The notes: generated from the letters alone by a model not told the origin. Positions 6,860-64,000 are shown, counted from the first letter of the stretch. The stretch is 64,000 nucleotides of DNA from an uncultured Gammaproteobacteria bacterium (GCA_964362665.1 CAYIFB010000005.1:2556-66555), one strand, 5' to 3'. Translations and numbers: made by a program.

Positions 6860-6888
6860 AGTCTATTTATCCTCCCTAAATGTTAAGT

Positions 6889-8096: not shown

Positions 8097-8107
8097 ATGT
8101 TTATTCT

Positions 8108-22165: not shown

Positions 22166-22240
22166 GGGCCTGCCGCTCGTCACCCTATTGCTGTGCCGGG
22201 TTAAACGTCACATCAACAGGGTACCTGACTCGCGTCACCC
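22166..22240 (+). repeat. family A GC-rich repeat, copy 1
   Basis: Starts gggcctgccgctcgtcaccc and ends cctgactcgcgtcaccc. Contains the gggttaaacg core shared with copy 2. Confidence 0.6.
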
Positions 22241-22256
22241 GCTTGCTGTATGACTT

Positions 22257-25973: not shown

Positions 25974-26106
25974 GAGTTTCGCGTTATTATATAGTTATTC
26001 CCAGAGGGTCCTGCCGCTCGTCACCCTGCTGTTGCGTCGGGTTAAACGCCGACAACAGCATGGCACCTGACTCGCGTCACCCACTCGATTTCTGTTAACG
26101 CGAGAC
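25974..26106 (+). repeat. family A repeat copy 2 with flanking terminal inverted repeats (MITE-like, fills the intergenic region)
   Basis: Core gggtcctgccgctcgtcaccc...cctgactcgcgtcaccc (26006-26082). Flanked by gagtttcgcgtta (25974-25986) and taacgcgagact (26095-26106), which are inverted repeats. Confidence 0.7.
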
Positions 26107-48179: not shown

Positions 48180-50147
48180 TTTTTGGGAAGGAAGAAGATT
48201 TAGGGCCGACGGAGATGAGTTTTCCAGATCGAGGGTGGGATTTTCAATTACCTTAACTTTTTTCAACTTCAGACTTCCGGTGGCAGTTATGGCTTCAGGA
48301 AATTGGGAGAGTTCATCTTCAATCTTTTTCATGTCACCCGAATCAAGTGGAATGAGGGATGCGGCGGTTTGAAGCTCTTTATAAGCTTCATCATACTTTT
48401 TTTGAGAGCGAAGCGCGACAGCCAGATCAAAGTGGGCATTAGCCAGGTCGGGTTTGAGATAGATTGCCTGGCGAAAGAGCATTTCCGCATCCGCATATTT
48501 TTTCAGATTAAGGTAAAGTACGCCTAAAGCAATCCTGTTTTTGGGAGACAGTGGATCCAGGGTGATTTTCTGCTGCTGGCTTTGGACGGCGAAGTTATCT
48601 GCGCCTGCTGCGTATCCGATGATATTGGAATAGGTTTTAGTCAGGTTGTCCCAGTTGATAACATTTGTGCGGAAAAGATTGACTGAAACACGGGCTTCAT
48701 CAATTGCCTGCTGGACCAGTCGGGGAATATTTTGTTGATCTTCAGCTGTGGGGTTCTTTTTAGATGCCAGAGCATTGGCCAGGGCCAAATTGGTTTGGGA
48801 GAGGGCATTGTGGTAGCGGTCGATATAGGGGTTAAGTTTTATGGCTTGCCTTTGGTAATTATAGGCAAGTGTTCCCTGATTATTGATCAGAGAATCCAAT
48901 GATTTTTTAAAATTCATTTCGGCGAAGTATGCTTTTCCTCCAAAAAAAATAACTAGAGAAAATATTATCAGAGAGGGTAAAATTAAGAGATATTTTAAAA
49001 ATCCCAGACTGGAAAAGTCTATTTCAAATGACGGTTTTTTACTCCCGGAAACAGCTAAAAGTATGATGGCCGTCGTCAAAAGTACCATACTGGTGGGAAG
49101 GATTATCTGCAGAAAAAGTATGGCGACTGCCATAATTTTGAAGGAATAAAAATTAGCGTTTTCATGATTTTTTATCAGAGCCTCTCCAAACAATTGTTTC
49201 ACTGCTTTAATAATAATTAAGACATACATTAAACCTGCAAATAATCCGTATTCAGTCAAAAGATTCAGAAGAAATGATGAGGAAGAGGTAAAAACTATAT
49301 TCCAGACAGGACTGCTGTTTATCGTCATGGGCTTGGAAAGTGTGAAAGCGGTAATAAAATTTGCAGGGCCAATTCCCAAGGCAAGCGTCCTGATGTTTTT
49401 TAAGGTTTCGAGCATTATAGACCAGCCGAAATTAAGGGGCAGAAGAATAGGCGACTGGTTGGTAGCAAGATGTATGGAAGTGATAATTGTAGCCGTTGTG
49501 ATGAGAAGTGCCGCGCTACCATAAAAAAGATAAAGATAACCCCAGGACCCTGATTGCATTATTTGGTTTTTTTCTTCACCATCTGAAATGAAATATTTTA
49601 AAAGGCAATAGATGGGATGAATCCCTAAAACGGCGAGAAATGTAACAGTTGAGAGGAGGCTTCCGGCCGGCGTTTGGATACTTTTGGGTAAAATTCCCAA
49701 ATAAAGAAAAATAAGATATAAAGATAATAAGACAGCATCAACCAAAAGAATCTGCATAAGGGTCGATTTATCATTTTCATCGACGGCATACGTCAAAAAA
49801 AGATAAAACAAAAAACCTTCAACAATAGTTGTAGTTGCAAGCGGGGTAGTGAGCGAGATAGCAAGATTTGGGGATTGGAAGAGGGTTGAGGCGATGACAA
49901 AGCCGGTGAGAAGCGAAAAGGGATATAAATAAATGTCTTTGATGACCATTAATTTCTGCTCTGTGATTATTCTGACCGACATCAGGATAAAGCCGACTGA
50001 GATAAATAAAGCCAGAAGAGCCATTTTGTTGTACTCATAATATTCAGGCACGATCTGAAGAAAAAATAAGGGGAAGAGAAAAACAAAGAGGAAAGTGGAA
50101 TATTTAATTATTTTTTTGATTGACATATATTTCGCAATGTCTATCAC
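48150..50147 (-). CDS. O-antigen ligase / Wzy_C-domain polytopic membrane protein with C-terminal TPR repeats (PglL/WaaL-like oligosaccharide transferase or polymerase)
   Basis: About 12 TM helices with a large loop of the Wzy_C type. The C-terminal roughly 250 aa hold TPR-like repeats ('YADAEMLFRQAIYLKPDLANAHFDLAVALRSQKKYDEAYKELQTA'). Confidence 0.6.
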   Translation of the reverse strand: MIDIAKYMSIKKIIKYSTFLFVFLFPLFFLQIVPEYYEYNKMALLALFISVGFILMSVRIITEQKLMVIKDIYLYPFSLLTGFVIASTLFQSPNLAISLTTPLATTTIVEGFLFYLFLTYAVDENDKSTLMQILLVDAVLLSLYLIFLYLGILPKSIQTPAGSLLSTVTFLAVLGIHPIYCLLKYFISDGEEKNQIMQSGSWGYLYLFYGSAALLITTATIITSIHLATNQSPILLPLNFGWSIMLETLKNIRTLALGIGPANFITAFTLSKPMTINSSPVWNIVFTSSSSFLLNLLTEYGLFAGLMYVLIIIKAVKQLFGEALIKNHENANFYSFKIMAVAILFLQIILPTSMVLLTTAIILLAVSGSKKPSFEIDFSSLGFLKYLLILPSLIIFSLVIFFGGKAYFAEMNFKKSLDSLINNQGTLAYNYQRQAIKLNPYIDRYHNALSQTNLALANALASKKNPTAEDQQNIPRLVQQAIDEARVSVNLFRTNVINWDNLTKTYSNIIGYAAGADNFAVQSQQQKITLDPLSPKNRIALGVLYLNLKKYADAEMLFRQAIYLKPDLANAHFDLAVALRSQKKYDEAYKELQTAASLIPLDSGDMKKIEDELSQFPEAITATGSLKLKKVKVIENPTLDLENSSPSALNLLPSQKLIPTVVPQQ

Positions 50148-50234
50148 GGGTCCTGCCGCAAGTTTCCCTCCCGCCAGTACTCGACTCGGATTCTCGTTTG
50201 CGTGCTGTCGGGATCCCTTCCTCTTGCGTCACCC
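50148..50234 (+). repeat. family A repeat copy 5, immediately upstream of the start of 48150-50147
   Basis: gggtcctgccgcaagtttccctcccgccagtactcgactcggattctcgtttgcgtgctgtcgggatcccttcctcttgcgtcaccc. Confidence 0.65.
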
Positions 50235-50352
50235 GCTTATCCTTAATTATTATCTAAAACGACGGGATTCTCAAGGAGGGGATTTCAGGTATCAGGTGTC
50301 AGGTATCAGGTGTCAGAACTAAAACCTATAACCTAAAACCTGCAACCTTACA

Positions 50353-51438
50353 TTACTGTTCGAAACAGTAAAGACGAAGCGATGAGTTGCAGGCGCTTGA
50401 GGTAAAATTTGTCCAATCGTTGGTATCAAAGTTGGCATTTTTCCCGACCCTTGATGTCCTGTTGGAAGCATTTGAAGTAAAACTCGTACAGGTAGTAGTG
50501 CCTCCTGTGTTGAGAATATTTCCGGCAATATTGGTGTTTGTCCAGACATTGGAATTTATTGTTGTATTAATCTGGCTTAAATTTATTGGAGCACCTAGAA
50601 CTCCATCTGTCAGGTCAGTCCAGTCGTCAGCGATTTTGGTAGTTTGATTAATTAAAAGATAAGGATCTAAAGAATGGGTCAGTCTGGAAGCAGCGCTCAC
50701 CGTAGTACTTGAAAGCCAGGCTTTCCATGTGCCTCCCAGCGAGGCATTGTCGGCAAGTGTTTGGCACTTGGTATCCGCACCGGATAAACCGCCCAGATTT
50801 CCGTTATAAGTTGTGGAGGAGATAAAGACTCTTTTGGCATGAAGACTACAGGCGCCGTTTCCGTTACAAGCATTGTAACCGCCTCCGCATTCTGAAAAAA
50901 TATCCAGTCCGTCTGCGATATTGACGATATTCCCGTTTGCGCATTGATTACAGGCACCGGAAGGGTTGGTGTTGTCCGGACAATACAGACCGTCATTAAT
51001 ATCCGGAGTAGTAAGAGAGAGCATGACGTTTCTGCGACGGGCATTATCCGGAGGAGAACTGGAAATGATCTGTGTCGTGTTTGATGGTAGTCCGTCTGAA
51101 TCTGAATCTATCATCCAGAGGGGAGTTCCAATATATAATGATCCACCGGTAAAGATAACAATTGATCCACCTGTCTGAATAGATAATTTTCCCATAGCAA
51201 ATTTTTGTGTGACTCCGACTGTCAAGGTGCCTGTTTTACTTACGGCGAGGACAGCGGTATTGGTTGTGTTAGTACCGGCATCCACACCATTGACATTTCC
51301 ACTAAAGGTGCAACTGGTGGAAATAGTCAAATCTCCGGATGGGGCAACATTACTACAATCAGCGGCGAAGACCGATTTAGAACGCGAAGAATAAAGAATA
51401 AAGAATAGTAAAACTATTGAAAGTAATTTCTTTTTCAA
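50353..51438 (-). CDS. secreted cysteine-containing protein, a stand-alone copy of the C-terminal roughly 330-aa module of the 1430-aa protein
   Basis: Signal peptide 'MKKKLLSIVLLFFILYSSRSKSVFA'. Shares an ordered set of motifs with the C-terminus of 55999-60291 ('WMIDSDSDGLP', 'KVF..TT', 'GADT.CQ', 'AWLS.TT', 'RLT', 'WTNT', 'TC', 'L.LYC.(E/Q)Q'). Confidence 0.55.
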   Translation of the reverse strand: MKKKLLSIVLLFFILYSSRSKSVFAADCSNVAPSGDLTISTSCTFSGNVNGVDAGTNTTNTAVLAVSKTGTLTVGVTQKFAMGKLSIQTGGSIVIFTGGSLYIGTPLWMIDSDSDGLPSNTTQIISSSPPDNARRRNVMLSLTTPDINDGLYCPDNTNPSGACNQCANGNIVNIADGLDIFSECGGGYNACNGNGACSLHAKRVFISSTTYNGNLGGLSGADTKCQTLADNASLGGTWKAWLSSTTVSAASRLTHSLDPYLLINQTTKIADDWTDLTDGVLGAPINLSQINTTINSNVWTNTNIAGNILNTGGTTTCTSFTSNASNRTSRVGKNANFDTNDWTNFTSSACNSSLRLYCFEQ

Positions 51439-51443
51439 AGAGG

Positions 51444-52004
51444 TTATCGTAAATTAATTTCTAATTGCGACGTCTGGGTTCCGCTGGCGGCTTCAAAATT
51501 AATTTTATATTTACTGTCCGTCGTATCCGATACCTGCCAAGTGCCTTCCCAAGTGCCGAAAATGTCCGATCCCTGAGTTCTCGACAGGGGAACGGTAGCC
51601 GACTTATTATCAGTAGTTACAACAGCATTAATACTGTTAATGCTTGTATCAAAATAAGCCGTGACGCTTATTTTTTGGGTATCGCCGACAAAGGGTCCGT
51701 AGGGGTCGAGATACCCTCTGGTAAATTTAGGTCCCGGGCGGTTGCCTCCGCCGACGGTGAAGCTTTTCATACTGTGCGGTAAAGGAATAGGAGATGGTGA
51801 CGGAAATAAAATCGGAGTCGAGGTGACGATTGATCGTGAGCTGCGTCGCGGAGAATCCAATCTGACACGGTTAAAATCTTGAATCTGAGGAATTGAGGGA
51901 AACAAAAAACTGAAAGTTTCAGGAATACGGTAAATTATAACTAAAATAATGATTACCGCAATTAATCCAATAACCGTAAATTTCTTTTTTCTCGACGAAA
52001 GCAT
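51444..52004 (-). CDS. small N-terminally anchored protein, paralog of 60310-60870
   Basis: N-terminal TM anchor. Pro-rich linker 'PSPSPIPLP'. C-terminal domain shares 'VTTDNKS...GTWEGTWQV.D....Y..NFEA..G' with the other copy. Confidence 0.45.
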   Translation of the reverse strand: MLSSRKKKFTVIGLIAVIIILVIIYRIPETFSFLFPSIPQIQDFNRVRLDSPRRSSRSIVTSTPILFPSPSPIPLPHSMKSFTVGGGNRPGPKFTRGYLDPYGPFVGDTQKISVTAYFDTSINSINAVVTTDNKSATVPLSRTQGSDIFGTWEGTWQVSDTTDSKYKINFEAASGTQTSQLEINLR

Positions 52005-52054
52005 AATTTACTTATATTGAATCACATTTCTGATAAATTCTCAAGAAAAAAAGA

Positions 52055-55000
52055 TTATTGCAGTACGTCCTGAATTTCCAGAGAGGTTAAATCATTGGTG
52101 TTGGCGCCTGGAACAGGAGAACTGCTGTAAGGAATATAGTTCAAGCTGGAAGAGTCTATTCTGTAATTTGACGAAGTGTTGTTATTGTAGAATTGAACTT
52201 GAATTTTATTGTAATCTTTAAGAGCCGTCACAACTGTATTTTTATTAACCCAGCCGTGGGCTATTTTGGTAAAGTTTTTTGAAGATGTTGTCTTTGTACC
52301 GTCATTATTAAAAAGCGTAATCATCATACCTGTTTTGCCAGCTAAGATGTTTGAGTCAAGATAATTCATGACATTAAAAGTAAGCGTATTACCTGCATGG
52401 CCGGCAAAGACAATAATTTGGGTAATTTTTTCGGAATTGAGTATTGAACTTGACGGAGAAAATTTGAAAGCATACTTACCGTCATAAACTTTTGAGGAAT
52501 CCAGTTTATCTCTGGCATCCAGTTTTTTGGCGGTCCAGAGGTCAGGCAGTAAATTAAAGTCAAGATCGATATCGAATGAAGAATTCAAAATCACCGGAGG
52601 ACTGACAGTTGGAGTCGGTGTTGGAGTCGGGGTAACCGTCGGAGTGGGAGACGGGGTATAAGTTGGAGTAAGAGTTACCGTTGGCGTCGGTGTGTTTGTC
52701 GGGGTTACCGTCAAGGTGACGGTAGGAGTTGGTGTAAAGGTTGGTGTTGGTGTTCGTGTAGGAGTTACAGTGGGCGTACTGGTTGGAGTAGTCGTGGGAG
52801 TAGGCGTATTTGTAGGAGTTGCTGTTGGAGTTATGGTAGGAGTTGGTGTCCTGGTCGGGGTTACCGAAGGAGTTGGCGTACTTGTCGGCGTGGAGGTAGG
52901 AGTTGGTGTAGAGGTTGGAGTTGGTGTCCTGGTCGGGGTTACCGAAGGAGTTGGCGTACTTGTCGGAGTCAATGTTACCGTCGGAGTGATTGTCGGTGTT
53001 ATTGTTGGAGTCGGTGTTCTGGTTGGGGTAACCGTAGGAGAAGGCGTACTAGTTGGCGTTAGAGTCGCCGTCGGAGTAATAGTTGGTGTTAAGGAAGGCG
53101 TTGGTGTTCTGGTTGGCCTAGACGTTGGAGAAGGAGTAGAAGTAATGGTAGGAGAAGGAATAGTCGGGTAAAAATAAAGCCCGCCGTCGGTATAATTTAC
53201 AAAGTTACCAGAAGTGACGATATTTCCCTGTGATATATCCGCAAAAACCTGGTCAAAAGAATTGGCGGAAATCTGGGTTTCTTTATTTATCCCTAGTTCA
53301 AAACTGTAAACATCGTCATTGCCGTTTCTGTAGTCTATCCAAATCATCTGATTGCCCGAAATTCTGGGATTTATCTGGCTGCAGGGGTTGGAGGTGATTT
53401 GAGTTGTGGCTGACGAGTTCAGATCGTACATATAAATATCGGAGTTTGTACCGCCCCAGACACAGGAAGTATTGCCGATATTCCTTTCGTCAGTCCAGAT
53501 TATTTTAGTCCCATCAATCGCCGGAGTGTACTGGTTGGCTGACTCGCTGGTGATTTGCGTTTCGATTCCTGAAGTTAAATTTTTCATATAAATATCAGGG
53601 TTACCGTTGCGGTTATCCTGCCAGACAATATTGTCACCTGAGACTTGAGGATTGGTCTGGTCATGGGATTCAGTTGAAACCTGTTGAATTGGACAATTGC
53701 CGCTTACTGGATCAAAAATACACGTATAGATGTCATTATTACCGCTTGAATTATCCTGCCAGACTATTCGAGTGCCTGAAACTGACGGAAAAAGATTAGA
53801 GTCGGAAGACACCGGAATTTTTTTCTCCGGACACGCTCCTCCAACAGGATCATACAGACAAGCGTAGACATCCCATTTACTGTTCCTGAAATCCTGATAG
53901 GTGATATAGTTTCCGGAAATCCGCGGATAAAGATTGACGGTAGAGCTGTATGCTAACCATCTATTACTACAGATGTTGCCATTACTTATTGTACAAACCT
54001 CCAGTTGTCCACTGGGACTAGGATCATAAGGATCATCGTAAACCCAGACAAAATTAATACCGGAAACTCCAAAATAATACTCGGGTCCCAAGACATCAAA
54101 TATCTGATATGACTGATAGCTTTCAATAGTTACCTGTACCACATCAGTAAAGATATGGTTGGTGTTGTCCGTCGCTTCCAGCTTTAGCAGGTAATCTCCC
54201 GGGGGTAGGGCGTGATAATCCCAGGTAGTTAATTTAGTAAACGTTGATACAGGGGTAAAGACCGGAGAATTTATGGGAGTCCAGACGGAGGGGTTAGTGA
54301 AAGGAGCATAAAAAAGCTGGTACTGTTTAAAATCTGTTCCAAATGCCCAGCCTAAAATATCCGTCTGAAGGTTTTGCAGGCTTAAGCCGAGCCGAAATCC
54401 CGGAAAAAAGAGTGCTGCATCCAAAGCGGAATTCATACTGACTGCCTTAAATGCATTAACTCTTCCCGCTCCGGTCTTCTGGTCAAAACCGGCAATATCT
54501 ACATCATCTGCAGAGGATTTGAGTATCTGCCTGACATTTTCCCCGGAAAGTGCGGGATTATGGGCTTTAACGAGCGCTGCAACACCTGATACATACGCGG
54601 CTGACATTGAGGTACTTCCTAAACGCAAATAATTTGTTCCAACAATCAGATTAGGATCACAGACGCCAATGTAGCAGGTGGATGTTTTTAGGGATAGAAT
54701 GTTATTTTGGGGTAAATAGTTTGGCGGTGGATTTGTTGTGCCGGAGCCTGGCGCACTAAGGTCAAGCTGGACGCCGTAATTGGAAAAAGAGGACAGTTGG
54801 TCATTTTGATCCAGAGACGCAACCACAACCGGTTTTTGCTGACCCCACGAGGCACGCACCTGGTTTTGCGGGGCATAATACCTGACATCATCACTGAAGT
54901 TGCCGGCGGCAAAAACTACCACAGACCCGGCGTTGATGGCATTGGAAATTGCCGTCTGCAGCAAGTTATAGTAATAACAGCGTGAGTTGCAGCTCCAGCT

Positions 55001-55966
55001 GTTATTGATTACTTTAGCGCCTTTAGTGACTGCTCGATTAATGGCGTCTGCCGCCATAGCTAAGGTGCCCGAACCATCATAATCAAATGCTTTAAAAGCT
55101 ATAATTTTCGATTCAGGAGCCACCCCGATAACACCGAGATTATTATTTCCCATGGCCGCAATAATTCCGGCGACGTGCGTACCATGACCATTATCGTCTT
55201 TGACATCACTCGTACCAATAAATAAATTATATCCACCCGGGGCAACTTGAGGACATGTATTGGCATCGACTTGGCTTAGAGTACATCCTCCAAATTCGGG
55301 ATGAGTATAATCGATTCCTGTGTCAATTGTGGCCACCAGTACGCTGTTACCACTTCCATCTTTGCCTTTCGTGATATCCCAGGCCGGTTCCAGATTCATT
55401 TTACTTGTCTTTAGAGCCCAGAGATCGTCGTATCCCTGTCCCCAGCTGTTAGACGAGGAAAAGTAAGGGTCATTGGGGGTAAAAGAAGTTTTTAAAATAT
55501 AGTTTGGCTGGGCATATTCGACGACTCCTGATTTCAGTAAGCTATTGATGATTTCCGGAACAGGCACGTCTGATGAGGAAAAAACAATTTTATAGATTTT
55601 ACTTAAATCAGTACCGGTTGGGGATTTAGTTTTAAAAACATTACCAAATGATTTTATGGGATACCTCTTATGGAGGTTAGAGATGGACGCGGGAATTGAA
55701 TTTGCATCCAAATCTGTCAGGGTGACATTGTCTTTTAGTAAATCTTTGCCAACACTGTCGCTTTTGACCGACAAGCCTTTCTGGTCGTCTTTCAGTTTGA
55801 GGATAACTTCACCGTGGACAAATTCTTCGCTTTTAACTTCTTTATTTTTTTTATTAGTCTGACTGTTTCCTTGGATAATCTGCGGATGGAGGAAAAAAAT
55901 AAAGACGGTTAAGAAAGAGATTATCAGGACGAGGTAACTTCGTAATTTAGTCTTTAACACATTCAA
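52055..55966 (-). CDS. giant secreted subtilisin-family (S8) serine protease with PD40-type beta-propeller repeats, a roughly 210-aa Pro/Thr-rich linker and a C-terminal domain of unknown function
   Basis: Signal peptide. Catalytic-triad blocks '[15 protein letters not shown]' (Asp), '[15 protein letters not shown]' (His), '[16 protein letters not shown]' (Ser). Five repeats of '(S/D)G..I(V/T/I)(W/Y)QD.RNGN.DIY...L' (PD40-like). Linker '[13 protein letters not shown]...' repeated many times. Confidence 0.8.
52600..53160 (-). repeat. tandem low-complexity (ACN-CCN)n coding repeat encoding the Pro/Thr linker
   Basis: Plus strand reads (ggt/agt/tgt...gg(a/t/c)gt)n, giving the antisense VGVGV shadow ORF 52692-53171. 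The sense strand encodes the TPT/PTP repeat. Confidence 0.7.
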
Positions 55967-55998
55967 AAGGCGATTAACGAAAAGGATTATAAACTACT

Positions 55999-58900
55999 TT
56001 ATTGCTGGATACAATAGAGTGCGAGAGTTGCGTTATTACAATAGGCAGATTGAGCTGGAAGTTGAGTCCAAGTCGATGTAGCGCTATCGTTTGTTCCGAT
56101 TTTGCCAGTATTAGAAGATGTCCCGTCTGTCCAATTTTGACAGGTTCCGGCAAGGGTATTATCATTAATTGTTCCGGTTGAGGTTGTATTTGTCCAAATA
56201 TTTTTTTGAGTAGTGATCCCTGCTGCGCTTTTACTGATGGGATTGACCAAACTACCGCTAGAGAATCCCGCAAAACTATTGGCGACTACGGTTCCATCCA
56301 CCAAAGTGTACTTGTAAGGTCCGGGAGTCAATCGGGCAGGAGCAGGAGTTGTAGTATTAGACAACCATGCTCTATAAGTGCCATATAATCCGGCAGCATT
56401 TGCTTGATTTTGGCAGAAAGTATCAGCTCCGCCTACCCCAGCAAAATTTCCATCATGGTTAGTAGTCGTATAAAATACTTTTCTAGGTGTACAGTCTCTA
56501 TTGGCAGTGGCTAAAGCCGGATCGCAGTCCCGTGTAAACCAGCCGTTAGTAGCTAGTTGAGAAGGTTTTTTATAACCGGGCGGAACCGTAATCATGATAG
56601 TTGGCGTCAGGCTATCAGGGTAGTTGTCTCCGTCAGCATCAGGGTAGACAGGATAGCCTTGCTGGATTTTAGAATTAGTAGCGTGAACAATCGATCCATT
56701 GATAATAATTTTTTGGCCAGGTTCCCAGACAAAAGTATAATTGGAAGGCATCGTAAAAGTGGTACCGCTGCCGATAGTAAGATTTCCGCCCGAAACAAAA
56801 TCAATTCCAGTGGCCGGAGTACAACTCCAGGTAAAATTGACATTTCCAGTGCCGGTATTACAGATTCCGGCAGTTCCGGTTGGCATTGGGGTGGTAATAA
56901 TAGAAGGAGCGGGATTCACAGGAAGAGATGTTCCTGTAGAATTTTGGGCTCTGACACGATAATAGTATGTGGTTCCCGGTAGAAGATAATCTACTGCTAC
57001 GGCCATAGTGGGTGCGGGTATAAACATTCCCGGCGGGGTGTTATCAGCTGTTTCTCCAAATGAGGGAATATATTGGTTAAAGGTTGAATCACGGGCAACT
57101 TCCACATAATATCCTGTCGGTCCAGGATTTGAAGACCAGTTTATCTGAAAGTATTTATAGGTGACGTTTGAAGCTGCGTTGAGGGTCGGAGTAGAACTGT
57201 AGGTTGTAACAGTGCCGGGAGATGTATAACTACTAACAGAACCCGCAGAGTTGACAGATGCCACTTTATAGTAATAAGTAGTTCCAGCAGAAACTCCCGT
57301 ATTCACGGAAGCAAAAGCGGTACCAACAGAGCCAGGATTATAGCTTGAGAGGGGTGAGGAAAAATCAGAGTTGTCGTCGACCATGACATTATAGGTTGAG
57401 GCGCCTGTCATAGAATCATATGAAAAGAAAAAACCGCTATCAGCGATGTTGAAAGACTGCAACGAAACATTGGTCGGAGTAGTCGGAGCAGTAAGGACTG
57501 TAACTTTATTGGATAGTGCACTATCACCGCTGGCAAATGTAGCTTTCAGGCAATAATAATATGTAGTATTGGCGCTTAAACCATTGGTGATGGAATATTG
57601 GGTAACATTACCGATATTATAAAGATTGCAGGTTCCTCCACCACAATTAGATGAAGTAATTGGAGATGTACTGCAATCAGAATTGGTCGTGACGCTTAAT
57701 TTATAGCTGGTAGCCCCGGTCACAGCCGCCCAACTACCGGTGAAACTGTTTTCATTGATAGTATTTGGTTTGATGGAAACTGCCGTAAGTGCCCAACCCT
57801 GAGCACCGCTTGAGGGAATAGTCCAAGACATCGTAACAGAATTAGCGCCTGATTGTGTGCTTCCCCTGCCATTCCATGCATTGTCAGAAGAAGTACTCCA
57901 CTGGAGTGTTTGACTAGCGCCTTTAGTCGCATCTGTCGTAGTATTCCAAAAAGTTAAAGCATCGACTACGATTTCTCCCGGGGCGCTTGTAACATTTACC
58001 GAAGCAGAGGTCACCCCAGATCCTCCAAAATTAGAAGCAAAAATTCCTAGAGGAGTTATTTGATTTGCCCCAGTAAAACTTATTGCGCCGGTTTGCATCC
58101 AGTCATTGCCTCCGGGGGTAACCACTATAGTATTTGTTCCGGTAGGAGGATTTACTAAATACCATAATTCCGAGCGAGAAAAATCACCGGATCCAGCCTG
58201 CACCGCCCCGCTTTTGGTTAGTGCAACTCCATTGTATGTCACACTGGTGACAGAGTTATATGATCTTTTACTCACTCCAACTACCAATAAGCGGTTTACT
58301 CCTGATACTGTATGAGACCAACTGAGACTTGCTACATTTGCTCCGGCTGAAGATGAAGTGGTGTCGATTGCCAAAGTTGAGGTTGCAGAATTGGCAACGG
58401 GAGTTGCAAGAGTGGTGACTGTAATTGTGCTAGAGTTTACACCAGTTCCACCACCCACAGAATCGGTTGCCCTTACTCTGTAATAATAGGTAGTGTTGGC
58501 TGATAAACCTGTGACAGAGTAGGTAGTGACATTACCTACAGCCTTAGCGTTACATGACCCTCCTCCACAGCCTGTTGCTACAAACGAGGTAAAGCCGCTG
58601 TCTGTAGCCACATCCAGCGTATACCCATCTGCACCGCTTCCTGACTGGGTATTCCAGTTGGCAGAGAAGCTTGTATCAATTACATTTGTTGCGGCGGTCG
58701 CTGCAACTTGAGCCGGTTGATAAGTGATAGTAAGGAATGGTTTATATGCGGCATTAGTATTATCCGCCGTGGCAAGGTTGATATCTTCACGTCCGGCTGG
58801 AGCAGTGTTATTAGTATCTTTATTGCTACTGAGGCAATAATAAGTAGATCCGCCATAACTGGTATCTTTAGTAATCCATGACGTACTTAAATTAGCGCTT

Positions 58901-60291
58901 GCGTATTGAGTATTGATGACTACATTACTTGAGTTTTTCCAACTATTATCGCTAGTGGCTGCCAGACACCCGTCGTAAGCCGCCTCCATATTTGAGGTAG
59001 TGAGAGGATCATTGGCGTTCCAGTTGTAATCGATTACGTTGGTAGTAAAATCTACAGCGCTGTTATCAGTTATCATTACCATTGTCAGGTTGACCTGATT
59101 TATGACCGCGCTATCAGGAATAGAGCTGGTGGTAAATTCTAAAAAGGATCGAAGGACAGTATAGGTGACTGAAACTAATTTCTGTCCTACAGTTCCCGCT
59201 ACTTGAGTTGTCCCGACAGCATCTGCCGTATTTCTAGCACCGGTATATGTCAAACCACTTCCACTGACGGATCCATCTGCGGTGGTTCCGGCAAAGTCCG
59301 GATCGATCGTCACCGGATAGCTTGTCCCTAACTTTTTCAGCCAACTGACAGGAACAGAAGTATAGAGATACCAAGTATTCCCTTCTTTTATCAAGAATCT
59401 TCTTATGGATGCAGAATTATCTTTAGCGTCATGTCCTTCCGGGAAAGGAAAGATGGTGGTTTTACCGTTGTCTGTTAGGACAAGAGAATCTTTTGTTGTA
59501 AGCTCGTATTTAGCATTATTAGCATTTAGTGATTGGCCATTTAAAGTAAGATTGGAGGTCGTGGAAATCGTAGCCTTTAAAGTGAGGAGATCATCCAGAG
59601 ATGCATTATCAACAAGAGACGGATCTTCCAGGACTAAATCTTCACGAGCTCCAAGGTCATAGGCATTAATGATAAGTTTGACGCGATCACCATCCAAGGT
59701 AAGAAGATTATCAGTCTTATTTACTTTAGGATTATCAAGATTGTTTATCCTTATAAAAGCGTTGTTGATAGGATTATAAATTCCCAGTGTCGGAGCTCCA
59801 CTTTCCAGAAGAGAGTCACCGTTCTTTTGGGTTATTGCTCCATTCTTTGACAAATATAGTCCTACTCCATTTTTGGTCTGGTAGTCGTATCTGGGATCTG
59901 TACTTTTCTCCAGTGAATAATCAATCGGTTGCCAAATACCAGGTGCAACCTCGTAGTTCTGTTTAAAGCCGGTAAAAAGAGCAGTCACAGTACCGTCAGC
60001 ATTTTTAAAATGGGTGGAATAGGCATCTTTTGATACTACCTCTTTATCCCGAAGATCCATCTTGTCTGCCTGAGTATCAATCCAACGCACGCCTGTTTTG
60101 GGGCCGATGGAGTTATTGGCATAGACTTTTTGGGAGGATAATTTTGGCAGTACCAGGTAATAAGCACCAATTAAAAGTCCGCCAATACTGGAGACAAACA
60201 ACAAAGAACAGATAATCCTTCGATAAAACTCAGGACAGGCAGGTAACAGGGAAAATCTTGACTTGAAATTACGCCGGGCAGATTTTTTCAT
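55999..60291 (-). CDS. 1430-aa N-terminally anchored surface protein with four fibronectin type III-like repeats and the C-terminal Cys-containing module shared with 50353-51438
   Basis: N-terminal TM 'LLFVSSIGGLLIGAYYLVL'. Four repeats ending in 'TTYYY(R/C/K)V(R/K)A' with upstream 'W....GA..Y' (FN3 pattern). C-terminal 'RKVFYTTT...GADTFCQ...AWLSNTT...RLT...WTNT...TCQNWT...LALYCIQQ'. Confidence 0.7.
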   Translation of the reverse strand: MKKSARRNFKSRFSLLPACPEFYRRIICSLLFVSSIGGLLIGAYYLVLPKLSSQKVYANNSIGPKTGVRWIDTQADKMDLRDKEVVSKDAYSTHFKNADGTVTALFTGFKQNYEVAPGIWQPIDYSLEKSTDPRYDYQTKNGVGLYLSKNGAITQKNGDSLLESGAPTLGIYNPINNAFIRINNLDNPKVNKTDNLLTLDGDRVKLIINAYDLGAREDLVLEDPSLVDNASLDDLLTLKATISTTSNLTLNGQSLNANNAKYELTTKDSLVLTDNGKTTIFPFPEGHDAKDNSASIRRFLIKEGNTWYLYTSVPVSWLKKLGTSYPVTIDPDFAGTTADGSVSGSGLTYTGARNTADAVGTTQVAGTVGQKLVSVTYTVLRSFLEFTTSSIPDSAVINQVNLTMVMITDNSAVDFTTNVIDYNWNANDPLTTSNMEAAYDGCLAATSDNSWKNSSNVVINTQYASANLSTSWITKDTSYGGSTYYCLSSNKDTNNTAPAGREDINLATADNTNAAYKPFLTITYQPAQVAATAATNVIDTSFSANWNTQSGSGADGYTLDVATDSGFTSFVATGCGGGSCNAKAVGNVTTYSVTGLSANTTYYYRVRATDSVGGGTGVNSSTITVTTLATPVANSATSTLAIDTTSSSAGANVASLSWSHTVSGVNRLLVVGVSKRSYNSVTSVTYNGVALTKSGAVQAGSGDFSRSELWYLVNPPTGTNTIVVTPGGNDWMQTGAISFTGANQITPLGIFASNFGGSGVTSASVNVTSAPGEIVVDALTFWNTTTDATKGASQTLQWSTSSDNAWNGRGSTQSGANSVTMSWTIPSSGAQGWALTAVSIKPNTINENSFTGSWAAVTGATSYKLSVTTNSDCSTSPITSSNCGGGTCNLYNIGNVTQYSITNGLSANTTYYYCLKATFASGDSALSNKVTVLTAPTTPTNVSLQSFNIADSGFFFSYDSMTGASTYNVMVDDNSDFSSPLSSYNPGSVGTAFASVNTGVSAGTTYYYKVASVNSAGSVSSYTSPGTVTTYSSTPTLNAASNVTYKYFQINWSSNPGPTGYYVEVARDSTFNQYIPSFGETADNTPPGMFIPAPTMAVAVDYLLPGTTYYYRVRAQNSTGTSLPVNPAPSIITTPMPTGTAGICNTGTGNVNFTWSCTPATGIDFVSGGNLTIGSGTTFTMPSNYTFVWEPGQKIIINGSIVHATNSKIQQGYPVYPDADGDNYPDSLTPTIMITVPPGYKKPSQLATNGWFTRDCDPALATANRDCTPRKVFYTTTNHDGNFAGVGGADTFCQNQANAAGLYGTYRAWLSNTTTPAPARLTPGPYKYTLVDGTVVANSFAGFSSGSLVNPISKSAAGITTQKNIWTNTTSTGTINDNTLAGTCQNWTDGTSSNTGKIGTNDSATSTWTQLPAQSAYCNNATLALYCIQQ

Positions 60292-60309: not shown

Positions 60310-60870
60310 TTATCTGAATATAGGATTTAAGGTTGACTTGGCACCGCTTTCGGCGATTGCTTCTATATTCATTATATATTTAAAATAATTGCCATCATCC
60401 ACAATCCAGGCGCCTTCCCATTTGCCGTTGTTGGCTGTTCCTGAGACCAGTTTCAATTCATGCGGGGTAGATTTATTGTCTGTAACTGTTGTTAGTATGA
60501 CACTTTTGACAGGAGATTTGTAGTCGACCATAAGGCTGACTGTCTGGTTTCCCCCTTTTATGATATCCAGAGGATTGATGGTGAGTTTACTGATAGATGG
60601 ACCGGAGTTATTTCCACTTTGGACTTCAAAAACCTGTATTCCTGTAGGAAGTGGTCTTAAATTGCCGGGAATGACAGTAGGGAAAGGGGTGGGAGTGAGA
60701 GTTATTGTCGGAGCGGGAGATATAGTATTGGCTAATTTCTTGAAAAATGGTTTAAAGCTGGGGGAAAATAAACCAACCAACAAACCGATGATAATGACCG
60801 CGATAAATAAAACCGCGATTCGTAACGAAGAGTTACTACTACTTTTGCTTTTCTTAACCTGGGCAGTCAT
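60310..60870 (-). CDS. small N-terminally anchored protein, paralog of 51444-52004
   Basis: TM anchor 'IAVLFIAVIIIGLLVGLF'. 'PTITLTPTPFPTVIP' linker. C-terminal 'VTDNKSTPHELKLVSGTANNGKWEGAWIVDDGNYFKYIMNIEA'. Confidence 0.45.
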   Translation of the reverse strand: MTAQVKKSKSSSNSSLRIAVLFIAVIIIGLLVGLFSPSFKPFFKKLANTISPAPTITLTPTPFPTVIPGNLRPLPTGIQVFEVQSGNNSGPSISKLTINPLDIIKGGNQTVSLMVDYKSPVKSVILTTVTDNKSTPHELKLVSGTANNGKWEGAWIVDDGNYFKYIMNIEAIAESGAKSTLNPIFR

Positions 60871-61022: not shown

Positions 61023-64000
61023 TTAATTGATAATCCACCAATTGAATTTCACATCATAAGGAATTGGCGAGTCCAGAGCGACAGTAAAGTATGAACCGGC
61101 CTTTTTATCTGCCACAAAGATGACTTTATTGGCAGTTGGTGAAGCGGGGGTCATATATATTAATGTATGTTCGGTGATTTGACTATTATAAATGATAAGC
61201 TGCTGTGAGCCTGCCGGTATGATATTCTGGCCTGTTGTCCCCTGGGAATCGGCGCTTGGGATATTGATTCCATGCAGGCTTAAGTTCTCTGCAGCTGACA
61301 AAAGACCGGAGACGGAAGATGGCGAAGCTTCTTTATAATTCAAATTCAGCTTATTGAGCGTAAGTTCACCAGATATTGTGGCATTACCCGATGCGTCAAA
61401 AGATGCTGCAGGTTCTGCGCTATTACCTTTAATAATCAGCTTGCCGAAGCTATCCGGATCGGTAGTGTTGCTATTTGAGAGATTTATCGCAAGGTCTTTG
61501 CCAAGCGGGCTGATCTGGTCTGTCACTATTCCTTCACGGGCGATGATCTGCCCAGCCACATCCAGATTGCCGAATTTATCTATAACCAGCCGTCCGCCGA
61601 GGAAGTCTATACTATTCAGTGAGCTAAGATAAAGAGTATTTCCTAAGGAGGCAACTTTATTATTTTCAATGACAATTCCGCCATCGACGATAAGTTGTCC
61701 TGAAATAGTTGTGTCTGCCAGAGAGCTTTGGCCATATACCGTCAGGTCTGAAAGGGTATGCACCTGGTTTTGAGAACTGGTGTCAGTTGGCTGGGTAAGG
61801 ACAATATTGTCAGTCAGAGCCACGTTGTTATCAGGATTGGGGATAGATGTCGGATTGATAAAGGCCGTACTCGTGGCGATAAATTGCTCGACACTTTGAT
61901 TGAGCTGTGAAGATGATGTCAAAAATCCTGTCAGCTGGTCAAGGAGCGTGGCCGAACTTGATGATGTGTCGGCAGATGAAGTGGAAGCATTGAGCGTTGA
62001 TAAATCAATTGTGGGCGTCGGACTTGGCGTGTCAGTCGGACTTGGTGCGATAGTCGGAGTTGGTGCTTCCGTGATACTGGCGGTAATATTTTGATTTTCC
62101 AGAGTGGCAACTCTTCCCAAAAGGTCACCGAAGGAAGACTGAAGATTGTTTATTTGATCAGACTCTATCGTGCCGTTTACTTTAAGTTTATTTACAGACA
62201 ATTCCCCTGAGATAGTGGCTTCACCGGCAGATAATTTACCGGTTTGTGTTTCTTGGGAAGTTATAATTCCGGCAACTGTAGCCTCATTAAATACCGCTTG
62301 ATCAGACTTCAGAGTTCCGGCGAAAGTAGCGTTACCTGAAGCGTCTATTTCCGCAACAGTCTGTCCGTCTTTACCTATAACAGAAATGTTACCAGCGGAA
62401 GTTGATGTATTTTGACTAAGGTCAAATTCAATCTTTCCTTGGTCGGACAAAGGCGCGATTGAGTCAGTCTTCAGCCTTGCTAAATTGGCGGTACCTGTTG
62501 CTGTAAGATCACCGACAGGGGAGAGGATTTGGTTATTACCAAGCTGGGTAAGGTTGCCGACCGTCAGATTTTCAACTTTCAAATTTTTGATGACGGCAGA
62601 ATTGGCAACTATCGTGTCAAAAATTCCCTGTGCTGCATCCACAATTCCGGCTTTAATATTGGCGATTATGGCATTTGAATACGAGGCAAAGTCATAAATG
62701 ACGTCGCCTGATTTAGTACGCAGTTCATAGATGTTATTTTCACTAGGTTGATTCAGGCTGGCACTTTCACTGGAAATAAGTATGTCATAGCCGGAAATTC
62801 CACCTAATGAGTCCTGAGGTAGGTTCCCGTTTTGATCCAAAGTTACTTGATTATCAGGGCTGTTCAGGACGTATCCTAAGCTGTCGGAATATCGGATATT
62901 TTGATAATTTTGTGCATCAAATCTGGGTGCAGTCAGGCGGTAGGCGATACTTGTCGGTCGCCCTGAATAGATTGACAGCTGATTTAGGTTTTTATCAATT
63001 TTATACCAAGTTCTGGTGTTATCAGATGGAGTCAAAAGCACGACCATTTTATCAAGATTATTCGCAATATCAGTGACTTTAGAGAACAGCCACAAATCAG
63101 AACCTTTCAGCGAATTGTTAAAGTCGATAATCTTACGGTATCCGATACCCGGCACCAATTCATCGGTATTAACAAAGCCCGTGGTTTCCTCTTTGACTCC
63201 TGTCATGGCGGGTAGGTAGGTGGCGTATTTTTCACCATTTATTGTATATGGAGGATCAATTAAACCCACATCAATCTTACCGGTACCGGTACCGACTACC
63301 AGAAAGTTATTGGTTGTGCCGTCGCCGACAATATTTACTTTGCCGTTGATGTCAAGCATATAACCATTGGAAGGATTAGTAGTACCTATACCTAAATAGC
63401 CTGTATTGATATATGATTCGTTGGATGAGTTAGCGTCTAGTAGTACTGCGACGGCATTTGACGAATTATAGATGTTCAGCGATGTATTGACAGAATTATT
63501 GCCAAGTCCGATATAGCCGGACGTATCAGCAGCTATGAAAAGCTGGTTATTGACGGACCCTCCCGAGGCTTTAATAGTTACAAGCGAGGTATTTGCCGTA
63601 TCACCGAAAGATATAATAGGTACTCCTTGAGCAAAGGAAAATCTGTGAGGTCCACTTCCTTCAGCTAAGAGTCCTTTGCCGGCTACAGTCGCTGCAGTAC
63701 CGGATGTTGCTGCATAATTGGACATGGCACTTGCTTCCTCAAGTTGTGCACCCCAGGCCCAGACCGTATATCCGCCGCTTAGTACATATCCAATATAAAA
63801 GTTTACACCGGTATCAGCTCCACCTACGGCTTGAGTTATTGAGAACCGTTGCCATCTATTGGTAACTGTTATTGATTGTAATCCTCCGTTAGCATTAGTT
63901 GAGTCTTGAATTGCCAAGCTAATTGTCGTGTCTGACGCAGCTTTCAACCAGACAGATCCGGTAAAAGTTTTAGAGCCAACAGATGCTCCATAAGAATAAG
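61023..64000 (-). CDS. large repetitive fibre-like surface protein (at least 974 aa, N-terminus beyond the window), Asn/Ser/Thr/Gly-rich with a short PT linker
   Basis: Repeated '(I/F)DASGNAT(F/I)(A/S)G.L' units. Gly/Asn-rich beta-rich segments. 'EAPTPTIAPSPTDTPSPTPT' linker. No signal peptide at the first in-window Met, so the ORF probably continues upstream. Confidence 0.55.
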   Translation of the reverse strand, partial: YSYGASVGSKTFTGSVWLKAASDTTISLAIQDSTNANGGLQSITVTNRWQRFSITQAVGGADTGVNFYIGYVLSGGYTVWAWGAQLEEASAMSNYAATSGTAATVAGKGLLAEGSGPHRFSFAQGVPIISFGDTANTSLVTIKASGGSVNNQLFIAADTSGYIGLGNNSVNTSLNIYNSSNAVAVLLDANSSNESYINTGYLGIGTTNPSNGYMLDINGKVNIVGDGTTNNFLVVGTGTGKIDVGLIDPPYTINGEKYATYLPAMTGVKEETTGFVNTDELVPGIGYRKIIDFNNSLKGSDLWLFSKVTDIANNLDKMVVLLTPSDNTRTWYKIDKNLNQLSIYSGRPTSIAYRLTAPRFDAQNYQNIRYSDSLGYVLNSPDNQVTLDQNGNLPQDSLGGISGYDILISSESASLNQPSENNIYELRTKSGDVIYDFASYSNAIIANIKAGIVDAAQGIFDTIVANSAVIKNLKVENLTVGNLTQLGNNQILSPVGDLTATGTANLARLKTDSIAPLSDQGKIEFDLSQNTSTSAGNISVIGKDGQTVAEIDASGNATFAGTLKSDQAVFNEATVAGIITSQETQTGKLSAGEATISGELSVNKLKVNGTIESDQINNLQSSFGDLLGRVATLENQNITASITEAPTPTIAPSPTDTPSPTPTIDLSTLNASTSSADTSSSSATLLDQLTGFLTSSSQLNQSVEQFIATSTAFINPTSIPNPDNNVALTDNIVLTQPTDTSSQNQVHTLSDLTVYGQSSLADTTISGQLIVDGGIVIENNKVASLGNTLYLSSLNSIDFLGGRLVIDKFGNLDVAGQIIAREGIVTDQISPLGKDLAINLSNSNTTDPDSFGKLIIKGNSAEPAASFDASGNATISGELTLNKLNLNYKEASPSSVSGLLSAAENLSLHGINIPSADSQGTTGQNIIPAGSQQLIIYNSQITEHTLIYMTPASPTANKVIFVADKKAGSYFTVALDSPIPYDVKFNWWIIN

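Follow-up and report, generated by a model that had tools for sequence, protein, structure and literature searches.

A two-domain DUF1554 module and its co-encoded, predicted membrane-anchored partner in DNA of an uncultured groundwater bacterium

ORF A and the C-terminal end of the giant ORF B carry what the alignments show to be the same two-domain extracellular module, homologous in both blocks and composed of an N-terminal domain (N-domain) and a DUF1554 head. Taken as a whole, we read these proteins with fair confidence as lectin-like binding heads displayed by the module and a partner protein on the surface of a cell that is likely to belong to the Patescibacteria (CPR). The window is the whole 64,000-nucleotide stretch of DNA that was analysed, all features named below lie on its minus strand, and its source is an uncultured groundwater bacterium.

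Both ORFs are present as described in the original prediction. ORF A (50353..51438 in the ORF list) encodes a secreted protein of 361 aa with a signal peptide, the N-domain, a six-cysteine insert and DUF1554. ORF B (55999..60291) encodes 1430 aa that begin with a hydrophobic segment and continue with a region unmatched in Pfam, FN3 modules, and then the N-domain and DUF1554. Using composition-adjusted BLASTP, we aligned residues 202-361 of A with residues 1270-1430 of B at 37% identity (E 6e-26), which is similarity beyond composition. All the motifs from which the relationship had been read by eye (K/R-VF..TT, GADT.CQ, AWLS.TT, RLT, WTNT, TC..(F/W)T and L.LYC.(E/Q)Q) fall inside this alignment. 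A tblastn search with the domain as query found two copies of DUF1554 in the whole window, those of A and B. The N-blocks are much less similar than the C-terminal blocks, with a pairwise score of 30.8 bits that carries no composition correction. With a profile of 28 A-orthologues limited to residues 25-150 as the query, hhalign gave the N-block of B a score of 44.3 (probability 92%), and 100 shuffles gave a mean of 12.0, a standard deviation of 2.5 and a maximum of 21.2. Plain hmmsearch with an A-only HMM did not recover the N-block of B; the bridge protein P0130 matches this block at 41% identity (E 3e-12) and the A-family N-domain HMM at 4.4e-13. The DUF1554 domain of B matches the A-family profile with a probability of 99.9% (hhalign). 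The original prediction had described one module of about 330 residues. Its homology stands, and its length does not: the shared stretch of B covers about 290 residues (1141-1430) in two homologous blocks, and the six-cysteine segment of A has no counterpart there. The acidic loop does occur in both proteins (DSDSDG at D111-G116 of A, DADGDN at D1218-N1223 of B). It belongs to the separate N-terminal domain, and the module is two separable domains, not one. The conserved cysteine spacing that had been noted is found in both domains, with four cysteines in DUF1554 (C225/317/350/358 in A, C1293/1384/1418/1427 in B) and one pair in the N-domain (C28/43 and C1144/1157).

The product of ORF A is identical to the database protein P0001 (NCBI, ENA) and has about 28 full-length orthologues with 35-60% identity. 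Its signal peptide (residues 1-25; 51364..51438) was delimited from the model helix and the orthologue leaders. In the model, a hydrophobic helix covers residues 3-17 and pLDDT is low at residues 20-25, and the orthologues keep a mature start A-x-D-C behind a variable hydrophobic leader. The signal peptide is probably cleaved near the junction of VFA and AD. Asp stands before the first cysteine downstream of the leader (VFAADC), and A reads as having no lipobox. The leader is followed by the N-domain (residues 26-150; 50989..51363; from alignments), which contains C28 and C43, the DxDxDG loop and then an RRRN segment. Next come the six-cysteine insert (residues 151-200; 50839..50988; C153, C163, C166, C184, C191 and C197) and the DUF1554/endostatin-like domain (residues 201-361; 50356..50838), the latter defined by PF07588, Foldseek and the profile search against the PDB. 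The insert forms two small hairpins in the model, with block-mean pLDDT of 75-95. It occurs in most A-orthologues and is missing from P0037, P0044 and B. In B, the N-domain copy (residues ~1141-1245; 56557..56871; from hhalign, the P0130 bridge and the N-domain alignment) has its DADGDN loop at residues 1218-1223 (56623-56640). A short two-cysteine linker, instead of the six-cysteine segment of A, leads to the DUF1554/endostatin-like domain (residues 1270-1430; 56002..56484; from BLASTP, PF07588, PF06482 and hhalign). Pfam fn3 matches two stretches of B (E 1.5e-17), and B forms a singleton cluster (P0317).

The C-terminal ~160 aa of A and B are DUF1554, the domain of the Leptospira endostatin-like (Len) adhesins, and this is known biology. 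PF07588, a model of 136 positions, gives 27.7 bits for A (model 2-133) and 26.5 bits for B (model 2-134) at a gathering threshold of 27.5; A is just above the threshold and B one bit short, and we count these scores against our preferred explanation. PF06482 (Endostatin) matches the same stretch with 21.1 bits in A and 26.0 bits in B, both below the cut-off of 29.4. Most orthologues have a precomputed PF07588 match, and some are named "DUF1554 domain-containing protein" by NCBI. The NCBIfam search with NF047482 (LenA/LenB) gave 31.9 bits over residues 204-361 only of A, short of the cut-off of 300, and no match in B. The DUF1554 identity that had been suggested at first is borne out. The cysteines C225, C317, C350 and C358 of A are invariant across 85 sequences. 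The two proteins end in LYCFEQ (A) and LYCIQQ (B), and C-x-[EQDN]-[QENK] is the exact C-terminus in 100 of 130 DUF1554 homologues.

The AlphaFold2 model of A has a pLDDT of 92.9. Its best PDB matches in Foldseek are the endostatins 1dy1, 1koe, 1bnl and 1dy2 (E 5e-9 to 1.5e-6; 5e-9 to 3e-8 for the first three), with a TM-score of 0.73-0.77, an rmsd of 2.5-2.8 Å over about 178 columns and 16-19% identity. The family profile also found endostatin in the PDB (E 2e-9) and aligned all four cysteines position for position, together with the GAD..C, W-x-S/T, C..W, C and LxC.E positions. Neither A nor B matched PF00059 (Lectin_C), the family of canonical Ca2+-dependent C-type lectins with their EPN/QPD and WND motifs for sugar and Ca2+, at E<=0.1, and C-type lectin structures matched the model of A only at a non-significant Foldseek E of 2-10. 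As modelled for A, DUF1554 adopts an endostatin-like version of the C-type-lectin fold. In the crystal structure of endostatin, the four cysteines form two disulfides with nested 1-4 and 2-3 pairing, and the DUF1554 head is probably held by two disulfides. The endostatin match, the four aligned cysteines and the signal peptide of A fit, at the level of the model, the earlier proposal of an extracellular binding domain that is stabilised by disulfides and lectin-like in fold. Most likely, the head is non-enzymatic and binds a glycan or protein polymer on the surface of another cell or particle. In other proteins, DUF1554 is fused to dockerin, cohesin, pilin N-termini, SLH, FN3, LamG, collagen and PPC modules.

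The beta-rich N-domain spans about 110-125 aa, contains a single pair of cysteines and closes with an invariant DxDxD(G) loop. Neither Pfam nor NCBIfam has a match for it. Its profile found 1,297 representative clusters at E<=1e-3, in which the domain mostly stands right behind the signal peptide. DUF1554 was present on only 3 of 107 sampled N-domain proteins; the remainder carry Fib_succ_major, DUF2341, LamG_3, ALK_LTK_GRD or Lcl_C heads, or heads without a Pfam match. Judged from these profiles, the N-domain is an independent and widespread domain that usually carries heads other than DUF1554. Positions 77-125 of the profile are repeated in 14-29 tandem copies in giant proteins. In A, the loop D111-S-D-S-D-G116 (51091..51108) is a putative Ca2+ site. 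D111, D113 and D115 are invariant in the 28 A-orthologues and in a 20-sequence N-domain alignment, and the type of motif suggests that the DxDxD(G) loop probably binds Ca2+. Three of the 107 proteins match PF11617. The model of A renders the N-domain as a run of 3-4-residue strands, for which Foldseek gave no confident structural match, with beta-helical proteins at E ~1 only.

We define a cassette as a gene for a ~170-200-aa protein with TM, Pro-rich and Ig-like parts that lies directly ahead of a co-oriented N-domain gene. The window contains two cassettes, in which partner-a (51444..52004) precedes A and partner-b (60310..60870) precedes B. Partner-a encodes 186 aa, with a TM helix, a Pro-rich linker, an Ig-like beta-sandwich and a C-terminal end NLR, and its stop lies 5 nt before the start of A. 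Partner-b is a 186-aa paralogue (33% identity, E 4e-18 in BLASTP) that ends 18 nt before the start of B; its close relatives elsewhere are P0134, P0135, P0137 and P0143. The first reading of this DNA had missed that a paralogous partner gene stands ahead of each of A and B. The AlphaFold2 model of partner-a (pLDDT 86.8) has a helix at residues 3-25, a low-confidence linker and a sandwich at residues 80-186, and the linker of the partners is rich in Pro/Thr. At the level of the models, the partner spans the membrane once and carries its Ig-like ectodomain on a Pro-rich stalk. The family comprises 40 clusters and has no Pfam match. It was found by a word-based search, less sensitive than the one used for the N-domain; with 40 clusters against ~1,300 for the N-domain, most N-domain proteins may work without a partner.

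The partner tracks the N-domain and not the head, in a strict order of partner gene and then N-domain gene. This order is seen in 11 of 11 distinct partner loci (the window twice, L005, L006/L016, L007 and L009-L014): the partner gene is followed directly downstream, on the same strand, by an N-domain gene that overlaps it or is separated from it by no more than 18 nt. The order seen in the window is therefore the same in 9 further distinct loci, and across the 11 loci the heads vary and the N-domain is constant. Distances between partners and between N-domains correlate with r 0.90, a value driven by few close relatives and expected for any co-inherited adjacent genes. One contig encodes a single polypeptide that joins a domain resembling the partner to a segment weakly resembling the N-domain. 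In limited searches, the cassette of partner and N-domain appears to be undescribed, and the domain libraries that were searched have no entry for it.

In the explanation that we prefer, A is exported alone as a secreted two-domain protein, and in B the module tops a stalk that contains FN3 modules and is more than 1,100 residues long. An anchor may be unnecessary for B, given the hydrophobic segment at its own N-terminus. The N-domain may dock onto the partner, which would hold it at the cell surface in a manner analogous to cohesin and dockerin. Interchangeable heads, here DUF1554, would thereby be displayed on a likely Patescibacteria (CPR) cell. A bolder proposal, which we offer tentatively and hold to be doubtful, is that the N-domain is a dedicated docking domain whose target, probably bound with Ca2+, is the Ig-like ectodomain of the membrane-anchored partner encoded next to it, and that the two form a previously unrecognised surface-display system, comparable in function to cohesin-dockerin, that swaps lectin-like heads. 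If this is true, Patescibacteria and their relatives swap heads (DUF1554, Lcl_C, Fib_succ_major, DUF2341, LamG and cysteine-rich ones) to attach to host cells.

It is also conceivable, though rather unlikely in our judgement, that A and B are ordinary paralogous surface or secreted DUF1554 proteins and that the 186-aa genes are merely co-transcribed neighbours whose products make no stable contact with the N-domain. The partner might then assist in secretion, folding or maturation, for instance, or it might be some unrelated protein of the envelope. Adjacency of genes alone does not prove contact, and P0018, an orthologue with N-domain and DUF1554 (L003/L004), has no adjoining partner gene. 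The partner has a generic Ig-like fold, for which no PDB structure matched at E below 1e-3. The cassettes in L011 and L013 adjoin VKOR and DsbA genes, which makes folding help for disulfide-rich cargo plausible. However, the partner follows the N-domain and not the head in every one of the 11 loci at such short distances, it was duplicated along with the module in this genome, and a possible fusion of partner and N-domain exists.

We regard as very improbable a polymorphic effector or toxin-like system, in which the N-domain would serve trafficking or delivery, the C-termini would act as payloads on the cells of hosts or competitors, and the small gene would provide immunity or export. C-termini that vary strongly behind a conserved N-terminal domain, an always adjoining small gene, and HINT or pretoxin-HINT domains in 1 of 107 N-domain proteins would suit such a system, but the identifiable heads are binding-type folds (DUF1554/endostatin-like, Lcl_C, Fib_succ_major, LamG, DUF2341 and FN3). 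Moreover, the small gene lies upstream, stays conserved while the heads change, and encodes a membrane-anchored protein with an extracellular Ig-like domain, which is the opposite of what one would expect of a cognate immunity protein.

Directly upstream of partner-b lies a gene for a fibre-like protein of at least 974 aa (61023..63947). It is syntenic with, and 30-31% identical to, the giant proteins that L014 and L009 encode ahead of their partner genes (E 5e-78 and 5e-73). Between the two cassettes lies, as context only, an S8 subtilase of 1303 aa (52055..55966; Pfam Peptidase_S8, E 1.7e-51) with beta-propeller repeats (TIGR04275) and a long Pro/Thr linker that corresponds to the PT-repeat DNA family D1. 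C-type-lectin-fold C-termini are the usual scaffold of the variable proteins of diversity-generating retroelements (DGRs), which are common in CPR genomes. That A and B are DGR targets or phage receptor-binding proteins seems to us scarcely credible. Their C-type-lectin-like fold does stand at the extreme C-terminus, and the fibre-like neighbour weakly matches the NCBIfam "phage head spike fiber domain" (33.6 bits, cut-off 36), but neither A nor B has a template/variable-type repeat of its 3' end in the DNA of the 64-kb window, only two copies of DUF1554 occur there at the protein level, and the cluster is flanked by cellular envelope-glycan genes. Finally, although A and B are both rich in T, S, G and N and their N-blocks score low pairwise, a purely compositional similarity is ruled out for practical purposes by the composition-adjusted E-value and the shuffles, and the profile, fold and bridging evidence is independently concordant.

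Several known systems resemble parts of the display system that we favour. The invariant D-x-D-x-D-(G)-[YFL]-P loop of the N-domain recalls the calcium loops of thrombospondin type-3 repeats (PF02412) and the MopE "putative metal-binding motif" (PF11617), whereas neither model is matched by A or B at E<=0.1. Lcl_C/DUF1566 (PF07603) and Fib_succ_major (PF09603), which we take to be members of the C-type-lectin clan, take the place of DUF1554 at the C-terminus, behind the N-domain, in proteins such as P0130; they are Pfam families distinct from DUF1554, and neither occurs in the window. Endostatin (NC1 of collagens XVIII/XV; 1koe, 1dy0/1dy1, 1bnl, 1dy2) is the closest structural match to A. The relation is real but distant, in view of the low identity, the sub-threshold PF06482 scores, the bacterial context and the lack of release from a collagen. 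Its N-terminal Zn-binding histidines presumably lie outside the aligned region and are not kept in the family alignments.

With the Leptospira adhesins LenA-F and Lp95, which bind matrix, A and B have the PF07588 domain in common, as well as a fold predicted to be endostatin-like and a location on or outside the cell. The Len motifs end in CVEQ (PMC2063517), which is similar to C[FI][EQ]Q in A and B. In contrast to LenA/LenB, A and B are not equivalogs by NF047482, lack a lipobox (A has a Sec signal peptide, and the B domain ends a giant FN3 protein), and have the additional N-domain and partner gene; the host here is likely a CPR groundwater bacterium and not a spirochaete pathogen. Laminin, fibronectin and factor H are ligands of Len proteins (PMC2063517, PMC2387172). 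They are mammalian and are no guide to the ligand in groundwater, where mammalian matrix cannot be the ligand. The N-domain and the partner have no sequence or fold similarity to dockerin or cohesin. By analogy, however, cohesin-dockerin and SLH display may be the nearest parallel to a small Ca2+-motif adaptor on many cargos with a dedicated anchored beta-sandwich partner, and DUF1554 itself is often fused to dockerin, cohesin and SLH in other proteins.

The original prediction placed one module of about 330 residues in both the free-standing ORF A (50353-51438, minus strand; 361 aa, TTG start) and the tail of the giant ORF B (55999-60291, minus strand; 1430 aa, ATG start). Comparison of the two proteins indicates that the similarity is genuine and falls into two blocks. 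Composition-adjusted BLASTP aligned residues 202-361 of ORF A with residues 1270-1430 of ORF B at 37% identity (E 6e-26), and this C-terminal alignment contains all the motifs by which the resemblance had been noticed. The N-terminal blocks align weakly when compared pairwise (30.8 bits). Using a profile of 28 full-length orthologues of ORF A, trimmed to residues 25-150, we obtained an hhalign score of 44.3 against ORF B (probability 92%); 100 shuffles of the ORF B segment gave 12.0 ± 2.5, with a maximum of 21.2. The N-terminus of P0130, an otherwise unrelated protein, matches the block of ORF B with 41% identity (E 3e-12), and the HMM of the N-terminal block of the ORF A family matches P0130 at 4.4e-13. 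When the sequences are aligned jointly, the DxDxD loop is in register at all three aspartates, as are both cysteines and the glycines. Taken together, the profile score, the bridge through P0130 and the joint alignment show that the N-terminal blocks are homologous. A compositional artefact as the source of the similarity is ruled out by the BLASTP E-value and by the shuffle control. The sharing was therefore predicted correctly, its extent and unity were not: the shared part of ORF B is about 290 residues (1141-1430), and it consists of a DUF1554 domain preceded by a separate domain with the DxDxD loop, here called the N-domain. A six-cysteine segment of ORF A (residues ~151-200) is absent in ORF B and in the ORF A orthologues P0037 and P0044. 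In the window, tblastn with the C-terminal domain found no copy besides those of ORFs A and B, and the N-domain HMM matched none of the ORFs beyond ORF A.

The C-terminal block of both proteins is almost certainly a DUF1554 domain with an endostatin-like fold. Pfam PF07588 matches ORF A with 27.7 bits and ORF B with 26.5 bits (cut-off 27.5). On the same residues of both, PF06482 Endostatin stays just under its own cut-off, and the NCBIfam LenA/LenB match, on ORF A, is weak (31.9 bits vs the equivalog cut-off of 300). We modelled ORF A with AlphaFold2 from an 85-sequence alignment (mean pLDDT 92.9), and its only significant matches in the PDB are the endostatins of collagen XVIII and XV (E 5e-9 to 1.5e-6, target-normalised TM 0.73-0.77, rmsd 2.5-2.8 Å). 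C-type lectin-like proteins are next in the ranking, with non-significant E-values. From sequence alone, the family profile finds endostatin in the PDB at E 2e-9 and aligns four of four cysteines as well as the G-A-D..C, W..S, C..W and L.C.E positions. The four cysteines of endostatin form two nested disulfides. Successive cysteines are separated by 92, 33 and 8 residues in ORF A and by 91, 34 and 9 in ORF B, and by analogy their pairing is predicted to be nested as well. The name DUF1554, which had been proposed, is borne out by the family libraries, the structure, the profile and the literature. In the literature, DUF1554 is equated with the "Len motif" found in the endostatin-like proteins of Leptospira, and a conserved CVEQ closes this motif. 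Laminin, fibronectin and factor H are ligands of Len proteins (PMC2063517; PMC2387172). Lp95 is a further DUF1554 protein (PMC4109591).

Homologues of the DUF1554 domain number 335 at E<=1e-3. In 100 of the 130 homologue sequences retrieved, C-x-[EQDN]-[QENK] is the exact terminus, and the modules joined to the domain include dockerin, cohesin, type-IV-pilin N-termini, SLH, FN3, LamG, PPC, collagen and TSP3. Judged from these sequences, DUF1554 appears to be a terminal extracellular binding head placed on many types of anchor or stalk. From this pattern, and from the known properties of Len proteins and of endostatin, we propose a non-enzymatic binding function, and a role as binding head is fairly probable for ORFs A and B. 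The C-terminal 340 aa of ORF B, used as a query, gave 10 weak matches, ORF B itself not among them. ORF B (P0317) forms a singleton cluster in the 15-billion-protein collection, and its giant architecture of FN3, N-domain and DUF1554 was seen in no other protein. Self-comparison of ORF B did not resolve the FN3 repeats.

The N-domain has no match in Pfam or NCBIfam. In the model of ORF A, it is a run of beta-strands of 3-4 residues (pLDDT 88-97) followed by the DxDxDG loop, and Foldseek gave only non-significant matches, to beta-helical proteins. When 1.84 billion representative proteins were searched exhaustively with the N-domain profile, 1,297 clusters matched at E<=1e-3, of which 667 reach E<=1e-10. 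The domain mostly occupies residues ~25-150, right after the signal peptide; in a minority it is internal, as in ORF B. Giant proteins contain 14-29 partial matches to the profile, which indicates that its last third (D-x-D-x-D-G-Y-P ... R-R ... D-x-N-D) also occurs as a unit of tandem repeats. Only 3 of 107 sampled N-domain proteins have DUF1554. Fib_succ_major, DUF2341, LamG_3, ALK_LTK_GRD, FN3 and a MopE-type metal-binding motif occur among the others, most of the sample carries cysteine-rich tails without a Pfam match, and the head of P0130 is Lcl_C. Given this diversity of heads, the shared module is one of many pairings of the adaptor-like N-domain with a variable head.

Both ORFs belong to a co-directional run that encodes large secreted or surface proteins. 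Its order is a fibre-like ORF (61023-63947, at least 974 aa), the 186-aa ORF partner-b (60310-60870), ORF B, an S8 subtilase (52055-55966, 1303 aa), a second 186-aa ORF, partner-a (51444-52004), ORF A, and a multi-pass membrane protein with TPR repeats (48150-50147, 665 aa). Downstream of the run, at lower coordinates, lie genes for enzymes of sugar modification and glycosyl transfer (DegT aminotransferase, hexapeptide transferase, GFO/IDH oxidoreductase, SDR, GT2, PMT_2). No known RNA or tRNA context was found. Contigs of a Hainich groundwater metagenome encode a protein identical to ORF A, whose named relatives come from Levybacteria, Daviesbacteria, Beckwithbacteria and "Patescibacteria group" genomes. 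Judged from these relatives rather than from a phylogeny, the window most likely belongs to a CPR/Patescibacteria bacterium. The subtilase lies between the two partner-module cassettes. It has at least five beta-propeller repeats (TIGR04275), degenerate repeats with a 6-nt phase encode its Pro/Thr linker (~270 aa), and its C-terminal domain is without a Pfam match. The fibre-like ORF has a near-threshold match to a "phage head spike fiber domain" (33.6 bits vs a cut-off of 36). The window also holds two copies, 93% identical, of a GC-rich repeat of 94 nt: one (40712-40805) is inside a 603-aa ORF, and the other (50144-50237) occupies most of the gap between the ORF A stop and the start of the TPR gene. 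The copies share the same long-range stem fold (z -3.4 to -5.7 in three of four strand/copy combinations) and have no Rfam match; shorter pairs resembling the repeat are at 22166-22252 and 26007-26094. Two DegT-type aminotransferase paralogues share a 203-nt repeat (35930-36132 and 44360-44562, 94% identical) and a 60-nt repeat (36208-36267 and 44686-44745, 85% identical). Between these repeats, the paralogue at 44087-45289 contains an unusual insert rich in Arg and Gly (about residues 160-200).

Partner-a and partner-b are paralogues (33% identical, E 4e-18). The stop of partner-a is 5 nt ahead of the TTG start of ORF A, and partner-b ends 18 nt ahead of the ATG of ORF B. The family comprises at least 40 clusters; their lengths range from 168 to 293 aa, and a single one is not below 220 aa. 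The search was word-seeded, and the family may be larger. None of its clusters has a precomputed Pfam domain, and NCBIfam does not match the family either. The common layout is a short cytoplasmic tail, one transmembrane helix, a Pro/Thr-rich linker and a ~110-aa domain ending in ...TLR. In the AlphaFold2 model of partner-a (pLDDT 86.8), a helix at residues 3-25 and a low-confidence linker lead to an Ig-like beta-sandwich at residues 80-186 (pLDDT about 98). The PDB matches of this fold are generic, of the Ig-like or E-set type, and all have an E of 1e-3 or more. A single degenerate peptide pattern from the partner alignment matched one genome locus and four metagenome loci. Relatives of both subtypes occur on other contigs, so the two pairs seem to stem from an old duplication, not from a recent one in tandem.

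We surveyed every partner locus with available DNA, 11 distinct loci. In 11 of 11, the next same-strand gene downstream of the partner encodes an N-domain, at a gap of at most 18 nt or with an overlap. The head behind it is DUF1554 at the two loci of the window and at L005, L006/L016 and L007, a ~100-aa cysteine-rich tail at L009, L010 and L014, and DUF2341 at L011 and L013; at L012 it has no Pfam match on record. Since the heads differ among these loci, the partner tracks the N-domain and not the head. One counter-example is the orthologue P0018, whose upstream gene (197 aa) is unrelated to the partner and was ruled out as its homologue. Synteny extends to the giant protein upstream of the partner: the 974-aa ORF of the window is 30-31% identical to the giants of L009 and L014. 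This fibre-like ORF may represent a third conserved component of the cluster. At L011 (7357-8426) and L013 (3568-4634), VKOR and DsbA/thioredoxin genes directly follow the N-domain/DUF2341 gene, which fits a need for extracytoplasmic disulfide formation. At L009, L010 and L014 (about 6300-8400 in each), the pair is followed by three small N_methyl (pilin-like) genes in the opposite orientation and then by a Wzy_C-family membrane protein and GT2. The equivalent place in the window holds the TPR membrane protein and GT2. The TPR protein was rejected as a counterpart of the Wzy_C proteins of L009, L010, L012 and L014, as no relationship to them is detectable. The contig CAYUUX010000010.1 (L007/L008), titled "uncultured Gammaproteobacteria bacterium", carries the cassette of partner, N-domain and DUF1554 as on CPR-like contigs; the contig may have been misbinned or mislabelled.

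We propose that ORF A would be exported by Sec and folded with disulfides, and that its DxDxD(G) loop would form a putative Ca2+ site. The membrane-anchored partner would offer its Ig-like ectodomain as the docking site for the N-domain, and the DUF1554 head would bind a surface polymer of another cell. ORF B would carry the same tip on an FN3 stalk. The signal peptide and the transmembrane topology are established at the level of models. The docking step is tentative, and we consider it rather doubtful. The main rival is that the partner genes are merely co-transcribed with the N-domain genes or encode a maturation helper. Pairwise distances of partner and N-domain correlate (r 0.90), as expected for co-inherited neighbours, which is not evidence of contact. 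On the metagenome contig L018 (4824-6548), one ORF of more than 575 aa, cut by the contig end, has a partner-like transmembrane and Ig-like region (residues 2-180, E 6e-21) and, 180 residues further on, a segment at residues 365-430 that weakly resembles the N-domain (domain E 7e-7, hhalign 84%). The two domains may therefore be joined in one polypeptide, an observation that is suggestive only. Much less probably, variable heads behind a common N-domain could be read as a polymorphic-effector system. A DGR or phage receptor-binding role is a further, improbable reading; its DGR version is rejected for this window, as no template/variable-like DNA repeat was found within the 64 kb.

For Patescibacteria, a life in attachment to host cells is presumed, and to our knowledge the molecules behind it are largely unknown. 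If the docking reading is true, the operon of anchor, secreted adaptor and interchangeable lectin-like heads would provide testable candidates for host recognition. It would also give a role to a large domain family without a Pfam or NCBIfam match. The operon may be a dedicated docking system for swappable heads. In the open-access literature, searches on DUF1554/PF07588, and on endostatin in connection with Patescibacteria, returned Leptospira work only, and nothing on the N-domain, the partner family or endostatin-like proteins in Patescibacteria. The DUF1554 family itself is already known, some orthologues being named "DUF1554 domain-containing protein" by NCBI, and its relationship to endostatin is already published for Leptospira. 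The sharing of DUF1554 is thus known biology, annotated in public records of related genomes, and matters little alone. As far as we know, work on endostatin-like domains has dealt almost exclusively with collagens and with the virulence of Leptospira; these domains are also common extracellular building blocks in environmental bacteria.
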